This document shows positions 17,628-55,576 of a DNA stretch of 64,000 bases, piece by piece. Where the stretch lies: the NCBI GenBank assembly GCA_963796455.1, contig CAWCLO010000005.1:32001-96000 (forward strand), given 5' to 3'. Position 1 is the stretch's first letter; the number at the start of each line of letters is the position of its first letter. The notes beneath the pieces are model-generated. The model had not been told where the DNA came from. It saw only the letters and a program-made list of their open reading frames with translations, and ran no database searches. Source of the DNA: Candidatus Sulfomarinibacteraceae bacterium (GTDB lineage: Bacteria > Acidobacteriota > Thermoanaerobaculia > Thermoanaerobaculales > Sulfomarinibacteraceae). The translations under genes and the position numbers were made by a program.

Positions 17628-18758
17628 ACCCAGGTGACCCAGACCGAGGGACGTCGCAAACACGAAGACACAAAGACACAAAGCAGCCACACCAAGAAAA
17701 CCACAGAGGCACGGAGACACAGAGAGAGAGAGAACGCCCGCAGATCACGCAGATAGACGCAGATTGATCATCGCTATCGCTATCGCTATCGCTATCGACG
17801 GGAGACGAATCGGATATGCCCACAGATCACCCAGATGGCCCAGATCGATGGACGTCGCAACCACGAAGACACAAAGACACGAAGAACATCACAAAGCCGG
17901 GCCATCGGTTTTGCCCACAGAGCACACAGAAAAACACAGAAGCCATCGCAAAGGCATGACCGGAGTGCAGCCGGGACGGCTGCACCACAATTGTGGTGCA
18001 CGCGTCTCGCGTGCACATGGTTGAACCGCAAAGAACGCAAAGAACGCAAAGAACGCAAAGTCGCAGAGACGCCAAGGCCTGGTTGGCGAGCTTTTGCGAC
18101 GTAGCCATCAGTGTCGGCAGATCGACCGACGATCTCCGATCGTCAGTCGCCGGTGAGAAGCGGGGCGCCTCCGATCACCAGTGCTCGGAGCCACCCCGCT
18201 CCCCACCGGCCGGCACGCCTACGGCATGCCGGATCTGCCTTGCATCGGTGACATCCTCACTTGATTGAAGAAAAGGAGAGGCAGGAGGCGAGCCCTGCGC
18301 GGTCGCGCAGGCAGCTGGGTCAGGAAACCGCGACGAAAGCTGGTTTTCGGGGCGGTTTCCTGGCCCAGCTGTACCTGGCCGCCATTGGCGGCCGGGACCT
18401 CGCCGGACTGGGGGTTCTTTCGGGAAGTCCTCTGCGTCTCCGCGCCTCTGCGACTCTGCGTTTAAAAACCGAGAGGCCGCCGCTGCTCGTTTGCAGAGGT
18501 GGTCGATGTCCATTCAATCAATCTGTCCATTGCGACTCTGCGTTCAATACACTCTTGGCAATATCGTCCAGCAGTTCGGCTGCCGTTGCGTCTCCGCGCC
18601 TTTGCGCCTTTGCGTTGAAAAACCCCGACGCTGACGCCGTTCGATTGCGGAGATGGCTGATGCCTCTGCAATCAGGCTGTCATCTGCGTCTATCTGCGTG
18701 ATCTGCGGGCATATTGCGCTGCTTCGCGACGTCTTTGTGTCTTCGTGTTTGCGACGTC
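17628..18758. repeat. Composite palindromic repeat, family R copy 2
   Basis: Perfect 28-bp inverted repeat GACGTCGCAAACACGAAGACACAAAGAC at 17650-17677 / 18731-18758; conserved hairpin core ~17965-18440. Confidence 0.92.
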
Positions 18759-21358: not shown

Positions 21359-22438
21359 ATGTTCGATGTGAAAAAACTTCTGATCGATGTCTTCGACCCG
21401 CAACCGGGTGAAGTTGTGACCTTTGCAGTCGACCTTCCGCACGGCGAAATTTCCGATCATGAAAGTTGGTCGGCTCGAAGGGCAATGGCCGAACGATGGC
21501 GTGCGGCGATGGCCGAAATCGGTGCCGAAAGAGAATTCAGCGTGCAGCCGATGCTTTCCTTTGAAGCCACCGGCGGCAACAACGCAGATCTTCCATCGAG
21601 GGCCCGCCGTGACGGCGAAGAGATCGATCTTCTCGAGGCACTCGAAGCATCGACGCTGGTGGTGGCGATGACCCAGTTTTCAGCCACGGCGCCGCTTGCC
21701 AATCTGGCTGAAGAAAACGATGATTTCCGTGCCGCGTCGATGCCGGGTGTCGAGGAGCGCATGGAGGGCACCGCGCTCGCTGCTGATTACTCGGTGGTGG
21801 CGGCCCACTGCAAGGCGATCTTCGACGCGATGCAGGGCGCGGAATTGTGCGACGTTCGTTTCTCGACCGGACACCGCTGCTTCTTCGATCTCCGCCACCG
21901 CACGCCGGAGATGGATGACGGGTTTCTGCCGCGCGGCAAGGACGGCGACCGCATCATCAACCTGCCCTCGGGAGAGACCTTCATCGTGCCCTATGAGGGT
22001 GAGTTCGAGGCGGTTCCGTCGTGGACCGCGGGCACCATCCCGGTGATGGAGGAGTCGGAGCTCGTGCTCTTTCACGTGGTTGCAAACTCGGTGGTGGTGA
22101 TTGAAGGTGAAGGCCCGGTGGCGGACAGATATGCTGCCCTTTTCGACGCCGATCCGGCGCGGGCCAACATCGCCGAGGTCGCATTCGGGGTCAACGACCA
22201 CGCCGAAGTCACGGGAATCGTCCTCGAGGACGAGAAGGCGGGATTCCATTGGGCCTTCGGACGTTCCGACCATCTCGGCGGCGTGGTGGGTGTGGAGGAC
22301 TTCGACGAGCCTGAGAACGTGATCCACCAGGACATCGTCTATGCGAAGGGCAACCCGATCCAGGCGGAACGCGTCGTGCTCATCCACCCGGACGGCCGGC
22401 AGGTGGTTGTCATCGACGAGGCGGAATATAAAATCTAG
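21359..22438 (+). CDS. M29 aminopeptidase-like hypothetical protein
   Basis: NLPSGE, IAEVAFGVN, LEDEK, HWAFG and IHQD motifs resemble thermophilic metalloprotease M29. Confidence 0.65.
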   Translation: MFDVKKLLIDVFDPQPGEVVTFAVDLPHGEISDHESWSARRAMAERWRAAMAEIGAEREFSVQPMLSFEATGGNNADLPSRARRDGEEIDLLEALEASTLVVAMTQFSATAPLANLAEENDDFRAASMPGVEERMEGTALAADYSVVAAHCKAIFDAMQGAELCDVRFSTGHRCFFDLRHRTPEMDDGFLPRGKDGDRIINLPSGETFIVPYEGEFEAVPSWTAGTIPVMEESELVLFHVVANSVVVIEGEGPVADRYAALFDADPARANIAEVAFGVNDHAEVTGIVLEDEKAGFHWAFGRSDHLGGVVGVEDFDEPENVIHQDIVYAKGNPIQAERVVLIHPDGRQVVVIDEAEYKI

Positions 22439-22493
22439 AGTTCGGAGTTCGGAGTTCGGAGTTCGGAGTTCGGAGTTCGGATTTTGGATTTTG
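22438..22493. repeat. Heptamer tandem repeat (GAGTTCG)6(GATTTTG)2
   Basis: Read directly; starts at the stop codon of the upstream gene. Confidence 0.95.
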
Positions 22494-23682: not shown

Positions 23683-24700
23683 GCCCACAGATTACCCAGA
23701 TAACCCAGATAGCCGACGTCGCAACCACCAAGACACCAAGACACGAAGGTGCCACACCAAGAAAACCAGGGAGGCACGGAGACACAGGGAGAGAGAATGC
23801 CCGCAGATCACGCAGATAGACGCAGATCCATCGCGCTCGCTTTCGTCGCAAACACGAAGACACAAAGACACGAAGGCGTCACACCAAGAAAACCACGGAG
23901 GCACGGAGACACAGAGAGAGAACGCCCACAGATCACGCAGATGGAAGCAGATCCATCGCAAACGGTCTCGTTGCAACCACGATGGCCCACAGAACACACA
24001 GAAAAGCACAGAAGCCATCGCAAAGGCACGACCGGAGTGCAGCCGGGACGGCTGCACCACCATGGTGGTGCACGCGTCTCGCGTGCACATGGTTGAACCG
24101 CGAAGAACGCAAAGAACGCAAAGTACGCAAAGACCTGAATGGCGAGCTTGTGCGGTGTTGCCATCAGTGTCGGCAGATCGACAGACGATCTCCGATCGCC
24201 CGTCGCCGGTGAGAAGCGGGGCGCCTCCGATCGCCAGCGCTCGGAGTCACCCCGCTTCCCACCGTCCGGCACGCCTCCGGCATGCCGGATCTGCCTTGCA
24301 TCGAAGACCCCCATTCTTGATTGAAGGAAAGGGGAGGGGATAGGCGAGACCTGCGCGGTCGCGCAGGCCGCTGGGTCAGGAAATCGAGACGAAAGCTGGT
24401 TTTTGGAGCGGTTTCCTGACCCAGCGGTACCTGGCCGCCCTTGGCGGCCAGGATCTCGCCGGTACTGGGGATGTTGCCGGGAAGTCCTCTGCGTCTTTTT
24501 TTTTCCGCGACTCTGCGTCTCTGCGTTCAATACACTTTTGGAAATATGGATCCAGCAGTTCGGTGGCCTTTGCGTTGATGAACCCGGACGCTGAAGCCGT
24601 TCGACTGCTGAGATGGCAGATGCGTTCGCAAGCAGGCTGTCATCTGCGTCCATCTGCGTGATCTGCGGGCATATTGCGCGGCTTCGCGATGTATTCGAAT
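23683..24700. repeat. Composite palindromic repeat, family R copy 3
   Basis: Same 9-mer arms and hairpin core (~24037-24495); right terminal repeat decayed. Confidence 0.9.
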
Positions 24701-30777: not shown

Positions 30778-31875
30778 AGGAGCAGAGGAGCAGAGGGGCA
30801 GAGGGGCAGAGGGCACCCGCCCCTCATCACGTAAAGAGCTTCCTGTACGGTTCTCCCTTTCCCCTTTCCCCCTTTCTCCCTTCTCCCTTTCCCCTTTCTC
30901 CCTTTCGGGAACGGGATCGGAACTGTCGTTCAAGATGTCATCCTGAGCGAAGCGCCTTCGGCGCGAAGTCGAAGGATCTGCGGTCACGGGTCTTTCCCTT
31001 GTGCGTCATAGATCCTTCGACTGCGCCCCTGTGGGGCTGCGCTCAGGATGACATCGGGAGGCGACATGCCCGTGCAGGAGGAATCAGCGCCGGGTGGTTC
31101 TCCCTTTCCCCCTTTCCCCCTTTCCCCCGTTCTCCCTTTCAGGATCGGTATCCACCGCAGCCGTTCGATAGCGATAGCGATTCCGATAGCGATAGCGAGG
31201 ATGTCGAGCGATCCTCTGCTCCTCCGCCCCCGTGCCCCTCTGCCATGTGGACGCTTGTTCTCGCTTTCGGGATCGGGATCGAAACTGTCGTTCAAGATGT
31301 CATCCTGAGCGAAGCGCCTATGGCGCGAAGTCGAAGGATCTGCGGTCTGAGGCGGAGCCGTTCTATCTCATAGATCCTTCGACTGCGCCCCTGTGGGGCT
31401 GCGCTCAGGATGACATCGGGAGGCGACATACCCGTGCAGGAGGAATCAGCGCCGGGTGGTTCTCCCTTTCCCCCTTTCCCCCTTTCTCCCTTTCAGGAGC
31501 GGTATCCACCGCAGCCGTTCGATAGCGATAGCGATTCCGATAGCGATAGCGAGGATGTCGAGCGATCCTCTGCTCCTCCGCCCCCGTGCCCCTCTGCCAT
31601 GTGGACGCTTGTTCTCGCTTTCGGGATCGGGATCGAAACTGTCGTTCAAGATGTCATCCTGAGCGAAGCGCCTATGGCGCGAAGTCGAAGGATCTGCGGT
31701 CTGAGGCGGAGCCGTTCTATCTCATAGATCCTTCGACTGCGCCCCTGTGGGGCTGCGCTCAGAATGACATCGGGAGGCGACATACCCGTGCAGGAGGAAT
31801 CAGCGCCGGGTGGTTCTCCCTTTCTCCCTTTCAGGAGCGGTATCCACCGCAGCCGTTCGATACCGATAGCGAGCG
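30778..31875. repeat. Tandem array of about three 354-362 bp units, each containing a 122-bp REP-like palindrome
   Basis: GATGTCATCCTGAGCG...CGCTCAGGATGACATC at 30934-31055, 31296-31417 and 31650-31771, with inner stem AGTCGAAGGATCT/AGATCCTTCGACT. Confidence 0.93.
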
Positions 31876-31913: not shown

Positions 31914-32351
31914 ATCACTGCTGTCCAAAACAAATCGGCATGTGAGGTTGCGCACCAGGAAGCACGAGATTTGCGGGTCGGTTTTTGGAAATTTCCGTTC
32001 GCGGTTGCCCTTGTCCGCGTCCGTGTCCTTGCCCGAATTGCAGCGGCAGCGACAGTGTCCAGGGGCAGCGACAGGGATCAGCGATCAGAGGCAGAAATCA
32101 GGGGCAGCGACGGCGTGATCACCTCCGGGTCGTTCAATAAAAGGAACAGCCGTTGTGGTGTCGGCGTCTCGCCTGCCCACCGTGCGGCCGAGACGGCCGC
32201 ACCACCAAGGGCGGAGTCCCGAAGAAACGAGTGCTGTTCACTGTCCCGGCCGCTGATCGCTGACGCTGATGACTGAACACTGCCGCTGGCGACTGTTTGC
32301 TGCCGCTGTCCCTGTGCGCTATCCGAGACTCTGTCTTGGACAAGAGTGATC
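31914..32351 (+). mobile_element. Family F element copy C (non-coding derivative)
   Basis: Ends ATCACTGCTGTCCAAAACA and TGTCTTGGACAAGAGTGATC match copies A and B; keeps CACCTCCGGGTCGTTCA but has no four-helix-bundle ORF. Confidence 0.8.
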
Positions 32352-40651: not shown

Positions 40652-41082
40652 ATCACTCTTCTCCAAGACAGAATCTCGGACGGCGTTCAGGGACAGCGCC
40701 AGCGACAAGGAACAGCAGACAGCGTTGGCGAACGGTAGTCAGCGGCAGCGGCAGTGTCCAGGACAGCGGCAGGTAGCAGGGACGGCGAACAGCGATCAGT
40801 GTTCAGCGGCAGCGGTCAGGATTTCAGACGGCGACGTGGCCACCTCCGGGTCGTTCAACGGAAGGGGTAGCCGGTAGGCGGCCGCCCGTGACGCGATGAA
40901 CACCTTCGATCAAGTCGGTGCCATGACCCGGCGGCTGTTGAATCCAATGAAGTGAGTGTTATTCGCGGTGCGCTGGCGCTGATCACTGCCGCTGCCGCTG
41001 ATTCCTGTTCCCTGACGCTGTCTACCGTTCTCTGTCCCTGTCCCTGCACGCTTTCCGAGATTCTGTTTTGGACAAGGGTGAT
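40652..41082 (+). mobile_element. Family F element copy D (internal deletion; retains the 3' end of the four-helix-bundle gene)
   Basis: ~45-bp terminal inverted repeat; CACCTCCGGGTCGTTCAACGGAAGGGGTAGCCGGT followed by a remnant encoding AMNTFDQVGAMTRRLLNPMK*. Confidence 0.85.
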
Positions 41083-50102: not shown

Positions 50103-50158
50103 GAGTTCGGAGTTCGGAGTTCGGAGTTCGGAGTTCGGAATTCGGAGTTCGGATTTCG
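50103..50158. repeat. Heptamer tandem repeat (GAGTTCG-type) x8
   Basis: Read directly; immediately after a stop codon, as at 22438. Confidence 0.95.
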
Positions 50159-50231
50159 GAATGAGGTTCGTTGTCCCCAAGCCCTCGATTCCCGCCGGTG
50201 ATACCATAAATAGACGGGAAAGGAGCCCCCT

Positions 50232-50542: not shown

Positions 50543-51661
50543 GTGGTAAGACATTCGCGAGAACCTCTGGACGGGTCGTGGAACGAAGTTCTCGACCAGC
50601 TTGGCGAGGCCGTCATTGTCCTGGACCATCAGCGCGTCCTTCAGCATGTCAATGACGCCGCGCGGCGTCTGCTCGGATATGAGAAGGGCCAGGCGATTGG
50701 CGGGCGGTGTCGGCTCACAACCCGTGGTGTCGATTGTGAGAATGCGTGCCCCCTGACCTTTGCTCTCGATTCCGGGCTCGACCGGGTCGAGGATTTCGCG
50801 ACGGTCTACAAGACCCGGGACGGCAGGTCGATTCGTCTCCGAATCACCGTCATTCCGTTTACCGATGACGAGGGCTCTTTTCAAGGTGCGGTGGAGATCC
50901 TGAGACCCTCCGACCCTGAACCGGGGTTTTTTATGGCTGGCTGTTCCGAAGCGGCGGAAGCCATGAGAAATCGAGCATTCGAGTTGGCTCGCAGTCGTGC
51001 TCACGTGCTTGTGGTGGGAGAGATGCCGGCGTGCCGAGACGTTGCCCACACCCTTCATCGTTTTTCCGGTGCCCCTCCAGAGCTCTTTCAAAACTGGTCG
51101 GGATCCTGGGATGCGGTCCAGGTGTGGCCGCCGGGGACCGTTTACGCGGATGGTGATGATGCGCGGTCTCTCCTCGATTCTGACCTGCCTGAGGATTGGC
51201 GGGTCATCGTCGGTGCGCAGAGCCCGGAATTCAGCGGCAACGGCTTCGAGGTCTTCGAGTTGAGTTCGTTGTCCGATCTCGGTCCGGATCTCGGGCGGAT
51301 GATCAGATCGTGGGCCGAGGAATTGGCGCCATCCACCCGTCTGACCGGGGAGGCCCTGGAACAACTGACTCGCCTGGCCTGCGATCGTGGCCTGGAAGAG
51401 GTCGAACAGGTCATCCGGGAGGCGGCGCGTACGGCGGGTGACTGTATCGATCGTGCCGATCTGCCGCTCGATGGGTATCAAACGGCGTTTATCGACGAGC
51501 TCCTCCAAACTGCGAATCCGCTGGCGGCCCTGGAGGAGCTTCTATTGCGCGAAGTCCTCGACCGCTGCGGTTGGCGGATGCAGGAGGCTGCTGAACGGGT
51601 CGGCGTCTCGCGTGTCACCCTGTGGCGCAAAATGAAGGATCTCGGCATCGAACGCCCCTGA
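50543..51661 (+). CDS. PAS + degenerate AAA-like + Fis-HTH regulator
   Basis: N-terminal PAS (VIVLD...VN.AA..LLGY); C-terminal AAERVGVSRVTLWRKMK; no Walker A or GAFTGA. Confidence 0.75.
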   Translation: MVRHSREPLDGSWNEVLDQLGEAVIVLDHQRVLQHVNDAARRLLGYEKGQAIGGRCRLTTRGVDCENACPLTFALDSGLDRVEDFATVYKTRDGRSIRLRITVIPFTDDEGSFQGAVEILRPSDPEPGFFMAGCSEAAEAMRNRAFELARSRAHVLVVGEMPACRDVAHTLHRFSGAPPELFQNWSGSWDAVQVWPPGTVYADGDDARSLLDSDLPEDWRVIVGAQSPEFSGNGFEVFELSSLSDLGPDLGRMIRSWAEELAPSTRLTGEALEQLTRLACDRGLEEVEQVIREAARTAGDCIDRADLPLDGYQTAFIDELLQTANPLAALEELLLREVLDRCGWRMQEAAERVGVSRVTLWRKMKDLGIERP

Positions 51662-51803
51662 GGCGAGCGAGGAGCTCGCCTCGGGTGCTTTGGATGCTGG
51701 ACGCTGGATCCGTCCACTCCGCGATCCGCTCCCGCACCCTTTTCGAAAGGGAGAAAGGGAGAAAGGGAGAAAGGGGAGAAGGGAGACCGCTCAGTCGCTC
51801 GAC

Positions 51804-52665
51804 GCTGGATCACTCTTGTCCAAGACAGTGTCTCAGACAGCGTCCAGCTGCAGCGGCAGAGTCCAGTGGCAGCGACAGCCGACAGGGTCAGCTAACAGAA
51901 GTCAGCGACAGCGAACAGCGCTCAACTCTTCGGATTCAATAGCCGCCAGGTCATGGCACGGACCTGATCGAAGGCTGTCATCGCTTTGCTGGCTCCATTT
52001 TGACTGATCGCCCCGGCGTGGGCGAGGAGCTCCAAGTGGCTGTCGACCTCTTTCGCCGAAGCGTAGGCGATTCTCCAGTGGTTCGATCGGTCTCTACCGA
52101 AACGGCCGTGGCCTTCTGCCAGGTTCGCAGGGACTGAACTCGCCGATCGGACTACCTGATCGGCTATGGATTTCAGCGGAGCGGGAACTCTCATCACGAG
52201 TTTGATCGTGATGCCTGCTGCTTCGAGTGCTTTCGAGTGGGCAATGAGGTTGGTGTTCGTGGCGGCTGAGGACATGGTCACCTCCGGGTCGTTCATGCCC
52301 ACACCCACAAGCCGGTGTGGTGGCCGATGTCAAGGATGCCCTGCACCCTGCCTGTCCTTGACATCGGCCGCCCACCGGCTACCCCTTCCTTGGAACGACC
52401 CGGTGGTGGCCACGCCGTCACTGCACCTGATCGCTGGCCCTGAACACTGCCCGCTGCCCGCTGCCCGCTGCCCGCTGTCCCTGTTCGCTGTTGCCTGTCG
52501 CTGCCGCTGGAAACTGTCGCTGCCGCTGCAATTCGGGCACCCGCACGGGCACGGACTCGGGCGCGGGGCAACCGCGAACGGGAAACGCCAAAAACCAACC
52601 CGTAACCCTCGTGTTCTCAGGTGCGCAACCTCATGCCTATTTGTTTTGGACAGCAGTGATCCAGC
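51804..52665 (-). mobile_element. Family F element copy A (complete)
   Basis: Terminal inverted repeats GCTGGATCACTCTTGTCCAAGACA (51804-51827) and TGTTTTGGACAGCAGTGATCCAGC (52642-52665). Confidence 0.8.
51922..52275 (-). CDS. Four-helix-bundle protein (23S rRNA IVP / Avd-like)
   Basis: DQVVRSASSVPANLAEG and IAYASAKEV motifs; SD GGAGGTG; 117 aa. Confidence 0.9.
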   Translation of the reverse strand: MSSAATNTNLIAHSKALEAAGITIKLVMRVPAPLKSIADQVVRSASSVPANLAEGHGRFGRDRSNHWRIAYASAKEVDSHLELLAHAGAISQNGASKAMTAFDQVRAMTWRLLNPKS

Positions 52666-52720
52666 ATCCAGCGTCCTCGTAGCTTGTTGCTTGCAGCGAG
52701 CAAGGAATTGAGCGAGCTCT

Positions 52721-53455
52721 CTACTCCTCCGGTTCGGAGGTGAACCGGTAGCCGACTCCGCGGACCGTGTGGAAGTGGACGGGGTGGCGGGGGTCGTTCT
52801 CGAAGGTCTTTCTGAGACGGTGGACAAAGGTATCGAGGGTTCTCGTGGAGGTGTCGAAGGTGTAGCCCCACACTCTCTCCAGGAGCTCTCCGCGGGTCAG
52901 CACCCGCCCGTCGTTTTCCGAAAAGAACCGCACCAGCATGACCTCACGTTCGGTGAGCGCCACCGACCCGTCGCTGGTGGTGGCACGCATGGTGTTCAGA
53001 TCGACTTCACAGCTGCCTATTTGAACCAGAGGACCGCTTCGGGCGGGAGTTTGAGCCCACTCGGCGCGGCGCAGAATGCCGCGCACCCTGAGGACCAGTT
53101 CTTCCACCAGAAAGGGTTTGGTCAGATAATCATCGGCGCCGAGCTGCAGACCGAGGATCCGGTCGGCGTCGCTCCCCCTGGCGGTGAGAAACAAAATCGG
53201 GATCAGATTGCCGGCGGTTCGTAGTTGTCGACAGACTTCGAAACCGTCAATTCCCGGCAACATGATGTCGAGGATGAGGAGCTCGTAGTCTGCCTCGGGG
53301 TTTGCCAGTGCCTCGAGGCCGGCCTCTCCGGTGGCAGTCCATTTGAAGGAAAAACCCTCGAGTTCGAGATTGCGGCACAGACCCTCGGCGAGCGGTCCGT
53401 CGTCTTCGACGACCAACAGACGGGTCGGTTGGTCCGCAAGTTGTGGATCGTTCAC
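52721..53455 (-). CDS. OmpR/PhoB family response regulator (orphan)
   Basis: LVVEDD, LDIMLPGIDG, GADDYLTKPF and TVRGVGYRF motifs. Confidence 0.95.
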   Translation of the reverse strand: MNDPQLADQPTRLLVVEDDGPLAEGLCRNLELEGFSFKWTATGEAGLEALANPEADYELLILDIMLPGIDGFEVCRQLRTAGNLIPILFLTARGSDADRILGLQLGADDYLTKPFLVEELVLRVRGILRRAEWAQTPARSGPLVQIGSCEVDLNTMRATTSDGSVALTEREVMLVRFFSENDGRVLTRGELLERVWGYTFDTSTRTLDTFVHRLRKTFENDPRHPVHFHTVRGVGYRFTSEPEE

Positions 53456-53643
53456 TACTTAATTGTAGCGTGAAACTGTTTTTACAAGGGGTGCTGGGCG
53501 CTAGATACTCGATTCCCGATGCTCGATACGACAAGATCATCTGTCGATTCTCACCCCTGTCGAGAGTTTCATTGGGTTCTTTTCTGGATTTGTCGATGGC
53601 AGCGGTTGGGGAGACAGGCTGAATCGAGGATCCAGTACCTGGC

Positions 53644-54510
53644 ATCACTGCTGTCCAAAACAGGTCGTCACCTGAAGTTTCCCACCTGACAACACGTGGT
53701 TTACGGGTTGGATTTTGGCATATCCGGTTCGCGGTTGGCCCCTACCCGATCCCGATCCCGAATTGCAGCGGCAGCGACAGCGTCCAGCGTCAGCGACGGC
53801 AACAGCGAACAGGGACAGGGGGCAGTGTTCAGGAACAGCGAACAGGGACAGAGATCAGTGTTCAGCGACAGAGAGCTGCGGCAGCAGTCTGGAGTTCATG
53901 TGGCGAAGTGGCCACCACCGGGTCGTTCAACAGAAGGGGTAGCCGGTGGGCGGCCGATGTCAAGGACAGGCAGGGTGCAGGGCATCCTTGACATCGGCCG
54001 CCACACCGGCTTGTGGGTACGGGCATGAACGACCCGGAGGTGACCATGTCCAACGCCGCCACGAACTCAATCCTCGTTGCCCACTCAAAAGCCCTCGAAG
54101 CAGCAGGAATCGCGATCAAACTCGTGATGAGGGTTCCAGCTCCGCTGAAGTCCATAGCCGATCAGGTCATCCGGTCGGCAAGTTCGGTCCCCGCGAACCT
54201 GGCAGAAGGTCACGGCCGATTCGGTAGAGACCGATCGAACCACTGGAGAATCGCCTACGCCTCAGCCAAAGAGGTCGACAGCCACTTGAAGCTCCTCGTC
54301 CACGCTGGGGCGGTCAACCGGAATCGAGCCAGTGAAGCGATGAAGGCCTTCGATCAGGTCCGTGCCATGACCTGGAGGCTGTTGAACCCGACAGAGTGAG
54401 TGCTGTTGCCTGTCGCTGACGCTGTCTGCCGTTCCCTGTCTCTGTCTGTCTCTGTCTCTGTCGCTGTCCCTGATCGCTGTCGGAAACTCTGTCTTGGACA
54501 CGAGTGATCC
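53644..54510 (+). mobile_element. Family F element copy B (complete)
   Basis: Ends ATCACTGCTGTCCAAAACA (53644-53662) and TGTCTTGGACACGAGTGATCC (54490-54510). Confidence 0.8.
54046..54399 (+). CDS. Four-helix-bundle protein (23S rRNA IVP / Avd-like), copy 2
   Basis: 101/117 aa identical to 51922-52275 by my count; SD GGAGGTG. Confidence 0.9.
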   Translation: MSNAATNSILVAHSKALEAAGIAIKLVMRVPAPLKSIADQVIRSASSVPANLAEGHGRFGRDRSNHWRIAYASAKEVDSHLKLLVHAGAVNRNRASEAMKAFDQVRAMTWRLLNPTE

Positions 54511-54571
54511 TGCATCCAGCATCCTGCATCCAGGAGCCAGCATCCAGAAAGCGGGCGGTTTGGAATGCCGG

Positions 54572-55576
54572 CTACGGAGAGGTCGAGTTGAGTCCGACGA
54601 ATGTTCCGTCGTTACGCCGACAGAGGATCCGCATCAGGGTGGCAAAACGCACACCGGTATGTTCTCCGGCACCGGCCACCATGAAAACCGTCGGAAATCC
54701 GATGGCGTGAATCCGCACCTTCCGTTTGCCGTCGCGACCGGTGGTGTTGAGGTCGTCAACCGTTCGCACGACGCTGTCGATCGATGGGCCGGTGAACTCG
54801 TCGCCCAGGACGTAAATTGAAATACGGTGATTGGGATTGGCAAAGGTCCGGATGGCGCGGGTGATGCCTTCGACCGGACTGGAGTTGGAAAAGACGCTCC
54901 AAGAACGTAAGCGCGAGATCACCGCCTTGCGCCGGCCGGGGGTGTCTGGGATCCATTTTCCGGCATATTGCGAGTACATGTACTGCCCCATGTCGTTCAT
55001 GATCTGCATGCCTTTGACCTTGGGGTACGTGTCCAGCACCTGCGTCATCTTCTCCACCACCGCAGGCCACGCATGGTGATACATCGAACCGGATGTGTCG
55101 ATCACGAAAATGATGTACTCGCTGTCGACCGGGATACCCCCCACCGCAGCGTCCCGTTGTCGCCGCATCTGGCTCTGGTCGAGCAAGCGCCGCATCTCTT
55201 CGGTCAGATCCTGTTGTGCCGCCAGCATCCGGCCCTCGAGGATGTCCTGAACCTCGGAGAGCTGTGAGCTGGCGGCGTACTCACCACGAATTTCAGAGAG
55301 ATCACCGCGGAGGCGGGCGATCCCCTCCTGTTCGATCGAAACCTGTTGCTGGCGGGTGCGGAGCCTGCGATCGAGAATTGCTGTTTCGCCACGAATCTCG
55401 AAAATTTCCTCTTCGAGCCGGGCGATCAAACTGTCGAGATCGATCCGAGCATCCTCGATCTTTTGCGGCTCACCGAGTTTGGTCAACACCAGCAGGAGCA
55501 CGATGGCGCCGAAGCCGCAACACACGACATCCAGAAAGGACAGCGAGAAAACCTCGAATTCGCGGCGTCTTCTCAT
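54572..55576 (-). CDS. ExbD-like TM + coiled coil + vWA domain protein
   Basis: N-terminal LSFLDVVCCGFGAIVLL; MIDAS-like IDTSGSM. Confidence 0.8.
   Translation of the reverse strand: MRRRREFEVFSLSFLDVVCCGFGAIVLLLVLTKLGEPQKIEDARIDLDSLIARLEEEIFEIRGETAILDRRLRTRQQQVSIEQEGIARLRGDLSEIRGEYAASSQLSEVQDILEGRMLAAQQDLTEEMRRLLDQSQMRRQRDAAVGGIPVDSEYIIFVIDTSGSMYHHAWPAVVEKMTQVLDTYPKVKGMQIMNDMGQYMYSQYAGKWIPDTPGRRKAVISRLRSWSVFSNSSPVEGITRAIRTFANPNHRISIYVLGDEFTGPSIDSVVRTVDDLNTTGRDGKRKVRIHAIGFPTVFMVAGAGEHTGVRFATLMRILCRRNDGTFVGLNSTSP

Follow-up and report, generated by a model that had tools for sequence, protein, structure and literature searches.

A four-helix-bundle gene and its leader hairpin within IS4-type ends in a Sulfomarinibacteraceae genome

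MIC231 carries a peptidase within IS231 ends. Mobile insertion cassettes (MICs) and MITEs depend on an active transposase, as set out in the part of PMC6542083 cited here. IS4Sa elements have ends of the form CA------T and target duplications of 8-10 bp (PMC2266710, Table 1). S23p-type four-helix-bundle proteins are widespread and have solved structures, and their function is not known. For the 23S rRNA intervening sequences that can encode them, origin as a transposon remnant and origin as a mobile element with a mobility ORF are both open hypotheses in the sections of PMC4990558 used here, where the Coxiella relative was translated only after a ribosome site had been added. Avd, of the diversity-generating retroelements (DGRs), is a pentameric, positively charged barrel acting with a reverse transcriptase and RNA (PMC6182149, in part), and the substrate of TnpA-REP is GTAG plus a palindrome (PMC8266576, in part).

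Here we describe cassettes that touch on each of these systems. The window, the whole stretch of 64,000 nucleotides that was analysed, belongs to assembly G000 (5.02 Mb, 90.5% complete) of a Candidatus Sulfomarinibacteraceae bacterium. A sequence-only reading had proposed four elements with shared terminal inverted repeats, whose only gene encodes an Avd-like protein and whose mobility might rest on an undescribed RNA- or hairpin-based mechanism. The element is real, and its core is unexplained but testable. No description of such cassettes was found in the full-text literature searched, outside of which subscription papers mostly fell, and helix-bundle genes go without mention in the cited portion of PMC4679880.

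Window elements and their IS4-type ends

The eight ends of the four elements (Table 1) all lie where they had been reported, against a chance expectation of 0.03 matches. Their boundaries, previously given as starting ATCACT, were drawn 2 bp too wide; the elements run from CACT to AGTG, while the 'AT' outside them is part of a target duplication of 9 bp. In each of the four elements the left arm pairs with the right one more stably than shuffled sequences do (z −4.9 to −6.3), and the whole 861-nt F4 copy folds at z −7.0, bearing out the earlier claim of foldable complementary arms. A search of 51600-54700 against Rfam gave no match, nor did the leader hairpin described below. The window copies sit between protein-coding genes, outside rRNA. 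The stretch unique to the A side of F4 is likely a remnant of an IS right subterminal region. Both short copies had been taken for internal deletions. This holds for F2, whose junction fuses the 5′ arm of the hairpin to the last codons of the gene and which is a deletion separate from the REP-doublet subfamily; F1 is no plain deletion and carries a REP doublet at its centre.

Table 1. Coordinates of the cassettes and their parts, numbered from the first letter of the window
Feature	Coordinates	Strand	Basis or remark
F4, full cassette 861 bp, IS4-type ends	53646..54506	+	ends and target duplication
F4 left copy of 9-bp target duplication	53637..53645	+	6/9 match to right copy, 54507-54515
F4 A end, 17-bp terminal inverted repeat	53646..53662	+	equals autonomous IS4 right end
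F4 A-unique non-coding stretch	53663..53755	+	resemblance to IS right subterminal region, by eye, unscored
F4 left low-complexity arm	53763..53900	+	duplex z −4.9
F4 conserved leader hairpin	53909..54047	+	pairs with the initial codons and the second start; GTAG, 53939-53942
F4 four-helix-bundle gene (TIGR02436/PF05635, S23p/Avd fold)	54025..54399	+	124 aa from 54025, 117 aa from 54046
F4 right low-complexity arm, complementary to left arm	54400..54480	+	arm-pairing test
F4 B end, 17-bp terminal inverted repeat	54490..54506	-	match to autonomous IS4 left end
Heptamer array, ~6 units, contains F4 right target duplication	54507..54547	+	
F3, full cassette 848 bp	51811..52658	-	flanking arrays mutually inverted; direct duplication 5/9
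F3 four-helix-bundle gene	51922..52296	-	second start at 52275
F3 leader hairpin	52274..52412	-	
F1, ORF-less cassette 433 bp	31916..32348	+	perfect 9-bp duplication; 98% identity to contig C8 copy
F1 RAYT-type REP doublet in place of most of hairpin and gene	32154..32208	+	junction common to 67 loci
F2, deleted copy 427 bp	40654..41080	+	B-type ends both sides; duplication absent (2/9 bases match)

Weight matrices built on the ends found 275 of them in the assembly (104 of A type and 171 of B type), compared with none in reversed or complemented controls at the same threshold. Merged matches amount to 245 loci covering ~2.4% of the genome, padding included, and 64 of these cover at least 105 codons. 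Ungapped full genes number 59, of which 58 are open and one has a stop close to the gene end; in about five further gene copies frameshifts appear to have split the reading frame, and the other tblastn pieces are deletion fragments. By a crude gene caller, and after genes mostly inside loci had been removed, no family locus is spanned by a gene; by the same caller, full copies lie preferentially in convergent spacers (26/64 vs 460/2720).

The earlier claim of mobility, with some copies complete and others shortened, is upheld, and the family shows presence/absence among relatives. The closest whole-element pairs diverge by 1-2%, and other Candidatus Sulfomarinibacteraceae records carry the same ends with a protein 85-88% identical. 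We compared 24 relative loci around the response regulator situated between F3 and F4. Where the F3-side neighbour was present (20 loci), 19 had a short gene-less spacer and one (G006) a full cassette; where the F4-side neighbour was present, the gene was absent in 15/15, and the G008 spacer on this side holds a deleted core with an ISL3-type end. These relatives are other species, and their spacers were compared for gene presence rather than as exact pre-insertion sequences. No sequencing run shared half of the region's words (best 0.23).

Flank identity peaks at 9 bp, and duplications of 2 bp ('AT') and 5 bp were dropped. Amongst the 66 well-paired elements (of 80 paired; 14 with a weak end were left out), 9-bp flanks were 0.79 identical compared with 0.54 when shuffled (z 14.4); for 20 elements outside the main heptamer arrays the values were 0.69 and 0.33 (z 9.1). 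Perfect duplications flank 21/66 elements. The match averages 8.6/9 in the 13 copies with the closest sister, and overall duplications are best preserved in the youngest copies (rho 0.39, p 0.001, n = 66). Heptamers outside the ends, which had been reported, are indeed seen, and are unlikely as element footprints: 47/134 arrays touch no family locus, and one is already present in the G006 spacer that is empty.

The same ends also bound autonomous elements. Searching species genomes with the 17-mer end gave at least 123 loci, and at no fewer than 11 distinct loci both ends surround an IS4-type transposase (L125, from the same genus, and others including L045 and L053), with a perfect 9-bp duplication at six or more of them. 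The two transposases scanned pass NF033592 (240 bits, cut-off 115) and contain DUF4372 and DDE_Tnp_1. Cassette ends CACT(G/C)(C/T)TGT... and the 9-bp duplication agree with IS4Sa as given in the part of PMC2266710 cited, a placement resting on ends and duplication and not on a transposase tree; they do not fit the ISPepr1 subgroup of the same source. The cassette gene is oriented opposite to the transposase of the autonomous elements. In G008, G012, G020 and G024 these IS4 ends hold an unrelated palindromic cargo of 280-390 bp. The window cassettes themselves contain no DDE/YREK transposase, the four-helix-bundle ORF being their sole ORF, and the catalytic partner is absent from the element, as had been supposed.

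A cognate transposase was found in 1/41 genomes, of the same genus, and that genome has no ends beyond the pair that bounds the IS. None was detected in G000 by tblastn or NF033592, nor in 39/40 relatives, all end-rich genomes included. The single PF01609 gene of G000 was rejected as a candidate, having unrelated ends and being IS1182/IS5-like. Since seven genomes nonetheless hold 13 to 191 end matches each, transposition of the IS4-type wrapper was likely past or intermittent. Given that autonomous IS4 elements are bounded by the same ends, the wrapper calls for no new mechanism: it appears to be a non-autonomous IS4 cassette, its insertion best explained by ordinary DDE transposition. A known IS with these ends elsewhere in the genome had been named beforehand as evidence against a new mechanism; such elements occur in other genomes, one of the same genus, and not in this assembly, which comes close to refuting that mechanism for the ends.

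A core module probably older than its wrapper

Inside the wrapper lies a module that the sequence-only reading had noted in part. It missed a 140-nt leader hairpin, which folds at z −8.8 and covaries at 17/46 pairs across 26 copies, counts that are inflated by the relatedness of the copies but were reached by 0/500 shuffles and by no slid control. G-U compared with A-C pairs (10 vs 6) show no bias as to which strand folds. The 117-aa ORFs reported for F3 and F4 are both open, 86% identical and match TIGR02436/PF05635; their start had, however, probably been placed seven codons too late. The upstream ATG (54025 in F4) is kept in 58/59 copies and is the only start in all 15 G040 loci read, which would give a protein of 124 aa; the second start is buried within the leader. 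Its AlphaFold model has four helices (pLDDT 94.5) and matches the solved structures of Xcc0516 (TM 0.81) and BT_0352. The Avd-like fold proposed earlier is also recovered (TM 0.77-0.79 to 4DWL and 8UB7), at 7-8% identity and more weakly by E-value. The protein has a small positive net charge of +5.

Leader hairpin and gene recur in relatives inside ISL3 ends or without IS ends, with up to ~48 matches per genome. In G005, G008, G014, G016 and G017 the core lies in GG(C/T)TCATCCGG ends, at L165 with an 8-bp duplication around it, and the same ends bound autonomous ISL3 elements at L231 and L234; no ISL3 transposase was found in G000. G040, from another family, has 46 core matches (29 at E < 1e-30) and none to the IS4-type or ISL3-type end pattern. 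The 15 loci read there lie within direct hexamer arrays and retain a homologous leader whose outer stem has been rewritten. In G004, 14/15 loci read showed no IS end within the stretch examined. The G040 and G004 cores may have other, unrecognised ends. Copy number within the genus ranges from 0 to 98 matches, and 4/24 genus relatives have no match. The core is probably older than the wrapper and separable from it, having been captured separately by IS4 and ISL3 ends and having multiplied without them.

We next consider selection. Across the 59 full genes, median nucleotide identity was 89.6% and pairwise dN/dS 0.14. In the 24 copies with both ends, p-distance was 0.19-0.24 for the wrapper and 4-fold sites and 0.05, or 4–5-fold less, for the hairpin and codon positions 1+2. 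This contrast within the same copies implies that constraint acted while the core was in the IS4 wrapper. We computed pN/pS by variant frequency class in place of branch-wise dN/dS, and obtained 0.11-0.16 for shared and 0.59 for private variants, the latter still being somewhat constrained (p 0.007). The low ratio of shared variants can also come from host-level selection together with repeated hits at silent sites. Neutral decay at the rate of the duplications would have given ~23 stops, where one is seen; replacements against the column majority have a median of 6 per copy, with ~10 expected from duplication decay, an expectation that is rough and that array slippage may inflate.

Linkage decays with distance (p 0.001). 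One mosaic copy agrees completely with a second copy at its two wrapper ends, whereas its hairpin and the 5′ half of its gene are 99-100% identical to those of a third; mosaic copies may be assembly mosaics. Segment congruence (Mantel) was non-significant for all pairs, which fits mosaicism or a star-like history with little signal. The core is under purifying selection and is swapped between wrappers.

The gene-less form is about as widespread as the full one. Its 67 loci share one junction, from hairpin 5′ arm to REP doublet to last gene codons, and A-unique haplotypes are identical between full and REP-type copies. Repeats matching the doublet flank two short Y1 genes; one of these genes was scanned, and its best score was as RAYT, although the fragment used stayed below cut-off. 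An ORF-less form at 67 loci implies that the protein is not needed in cis for spread of the wrapped unit.

Explanations for the spread of the core

The account to which we incline is a composite one, in which an IS4 wrapper moved in trans encloses an older, selected core whose protein would likely bind its own leader and favour copying of the intact module. Its parts differ in strength. Because of the ends and the 9-bp duplications, an IS4Sa-like DDE transposase, now lost or unassembled, very probably inserted the wrapped units by cut and paste, acting in trans. The older core (complementary arms, leader hairpin and S23p/Avd-fold gene) was probably captured separately by IS4 and ISL3 ends. The final part is tentative and falls somewhat short of probable: given the likeness to Xcc0516 and Avd (PMC4990558 and PMC6182149, each in part), the protein may be a nucleic-acid-binding oligomer whose cis-acting target is its own leader, as RNA or as single-stranded DNA, raising the use of working copies as donors. 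Such copies would thereby be preferred in conversion-like copying between loci, with host recombination or a further nuclease supplying the catalytic step. The gene-less spread to 67 loci and the lack of a cognate transposase in the assembly tell against the composite, as do the constraint on private variants, a replacement count near the decay expectation, the lack of a strand bias in the pairing, and a buried second start, together with the need of the Coxiella relative for an added ribosome site.

Host-level selection is the main rival to a cis role for the protein. The cassette would then be an IS4-ended mobile insertion cassette whose passenger stays intact because the protein benefits the cell or because mutant subunits poison a shared oligomer, and the mosaicism would be ordinary gene conversion among repeats. 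The 58 open genes out of 59 agree with this, with the caveat that the stop expectation is rough and arrays may decay faster, as do the partly constrained private variants and the spread of ORF-less copies. We nevertheless consider it unlikely, as numbers swing from 0 to 98 matches within one genus with some relatives lacking any, ~60 copies are unnecessary for a host function, and the hairpin is constrained like the protein and accompanies it across two families.

A second rival, which we regard as improbable, takes the core for an element resembling REPINs, a hairpin of single-stranded DNA that a resident RAYT (HUH) enzyme moves at GTAG, with IS ends acquired later. GTAG stands ahead of the inner stem in 52/59 copies and in the majority of the G040 copies read, TnpA-REP acts on GTAG followed by a palindrome (PMC8266576, in part), and RAYT-like genes are present whose REP doublet entered the family just after the GTAG spot. 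Several relatives, however, have ATAG, the stem is far longer than in REP, and the GTAG bases could belong to a reverse-strand promoter-like site. The leader profile matched none of 35 Y1-gene loci (6 own and 29 from relatives, part of all Y1 matches), and Y1 genes occur in 35/41 genomes, which makes co-occurrence uninformative. Nor was the suspected link to GxxExxY or Y1 genes seen: three GxxExxY loci and four of six Y1 loci are separated from the closest family locus by 1-36 kb. A RAYT acting at the conserved GTAG is no more than a lead.

The earlier proposal, an undescribed mechanism based on RNA or single-strand hairpins that would move the element complete with its ends, is barely plausible, since the foldback and the missing cognate transposase in the assembly are outweighed by 9-bp duplications, ends identical to those of autonomous IS4 elements, the same ends on unrelated cargo, and the absence of a PF00078 reverse transcriptase match in G000. 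It fails for the ends and survives only as an unproven idea for the inner module.

The core might even be a minimal selfish element, with an Avd-like protein that binds the leader of the core and causes intact cores to be copied to further loci and into the ends of unrelated insertion sequences, IS4 here and ISL3 in relatives. We think this rather doubtful; if true, S23p-bearing rRNA intervening sequences would represent this element caught in rRNA, and Avd would be a relative that retroelements had recruited. The cassette makes two questions assayable, namely the ligand of the protein and its possible part in its own spread, as the gene here sits on a defined unit with known ends and transposase class, a covarying leader that is a candidate ligand, and natural alleles that number in the dozens and are under selection.

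Comparison with known systems

The cassette is neither an IS, an rRNA intervening sequence nor a DGR. ORF-bearing 23S rRNA intervening sequences (S23p; Coxiella, Leptospira, Brucella; Xcc0516) have the same protein family and fold and likewise hold the gene within complementary termini with a poorly accessible start, whereas the cassette lies between protein genes at high copy number and has IS ends, and its gene is under purifying selection instead of decay. With Avd the protein shares the fold and a positive charge, a small net one in the cassette protein, but little sequence, and no template or variable repeat was seen beside the cassette gene. Like REP/REPIN-RAYT systems, the cassette is intergenic, enriched in convergent spacers and foldback in structure, with GTAG ahead of the stem in most copies but ATAG in several relatives, and 67 loci carry a true REP doublet as cargo; unlike them it is protein-coding, with 9-bp duplications and IS ends, and its leader was not found beside Y1 genes, where only the REP doublet of the short subfamily occurs.

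In make-up the cassette resembles MICs and the MITEs of IS4-family elements. Judged by its sequence it qualifies as a mobile insertion cassette, and it would work like one, having IS ends, a target duplication, a passenger gene and no transposase. It differs in that the cognate transposase was not found in this assembly, in its ~60 intact passenger copies per genome, in a passenger lacking any known host function, and in the occurrence of the same passenger bare or in ISL3 ends, with cores swapped between wrappers. Transposition of the wrapper is ordinary; the apparent capture of the same core by both the IS4 and the ISL3 family, and the maintenance of so many intact copies, is not.

Reverse strand and variants of the leader hairpin

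When the alignment of the leader, the conserved hairpin 5' of the four-helix-bundle gene, was read by eye, its reverse strand was seen to carry a perfect TTGACA 16-17 bases from a conserved TA in nearly all aligned copies, the final base of a -10 box usually being absent. From their sequence, these elements may form a weak antisense promoter. At three loci (L127, L158 and L160), a second, different hairpin segment interrupts or partly replaces the leader, with loss of the upstream ATG.

Related genes, cargo and wrappers

The genome holding the window (G000) also encodes a distant four-helix-bundle gene (31% identity) flanked by inverted hexamer arrays, around which IS ends are absent. Three short RAYT-like genes have REPs alongside; the REP of those at C4:210157 and C1:952748 has 113-139 matches in this genome, about half within the IS4-ended cassette family. 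Y1 proteins of ~340 aa are clustered a few kb apart, as in many relatives. Each of three GxxExxY genes, one of them broken, is enclosed by inverted repeat arms of 8-10-nt units. In relatives, the family's IS4 ends enclose two different REP-like palindrome cargos (L146-L155, L022, L024 and L026), with mostly perfect 9-bp duplications. At L234, an intact ISL3 element adjoins a four-helix-bundle core that begins with the same ISL3 end.

Coordinates of the features described (C, contigs of G000)
Feature	Location
TTGACA and TA, leader reverse strand	window 53939-53965
Distant four-helix-bundle gene	C10:733010-733321
RAYT-like genes	C4:210157, C1:952748, C1:740752
Y1 genes	C4:1144044, C4:1147021, C8:150867
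GxxExxY genes	C1:453963, C1:750134, C1:748392
ISL3 element beside four-helix-bundle core	L234 948-3199
354-bp repeat	window 30896-31832
127-bp repeat	window 23717-23982
6-9-nt tandem arrays, window spacers	1802-1829, 17770-17797, 22438-22488, 50103-50160, 51745-51786, others

Tandem repeats in the window

Immediately left of F1, an ORF-less cassette, lie 2.6 copies (94% identity) of a 354-bp unit composed of 6-8-nt arrays and a palindromic core. Elsewhere, a 127-bp unit built of purine-rich 8-10-nt microrepeats is present in two copies, and tandem arrays of 6-9-nt units are numerous in the window's spacers. Equivalent spacers in relatives are occupied by different heptamer arrays, often inverted.
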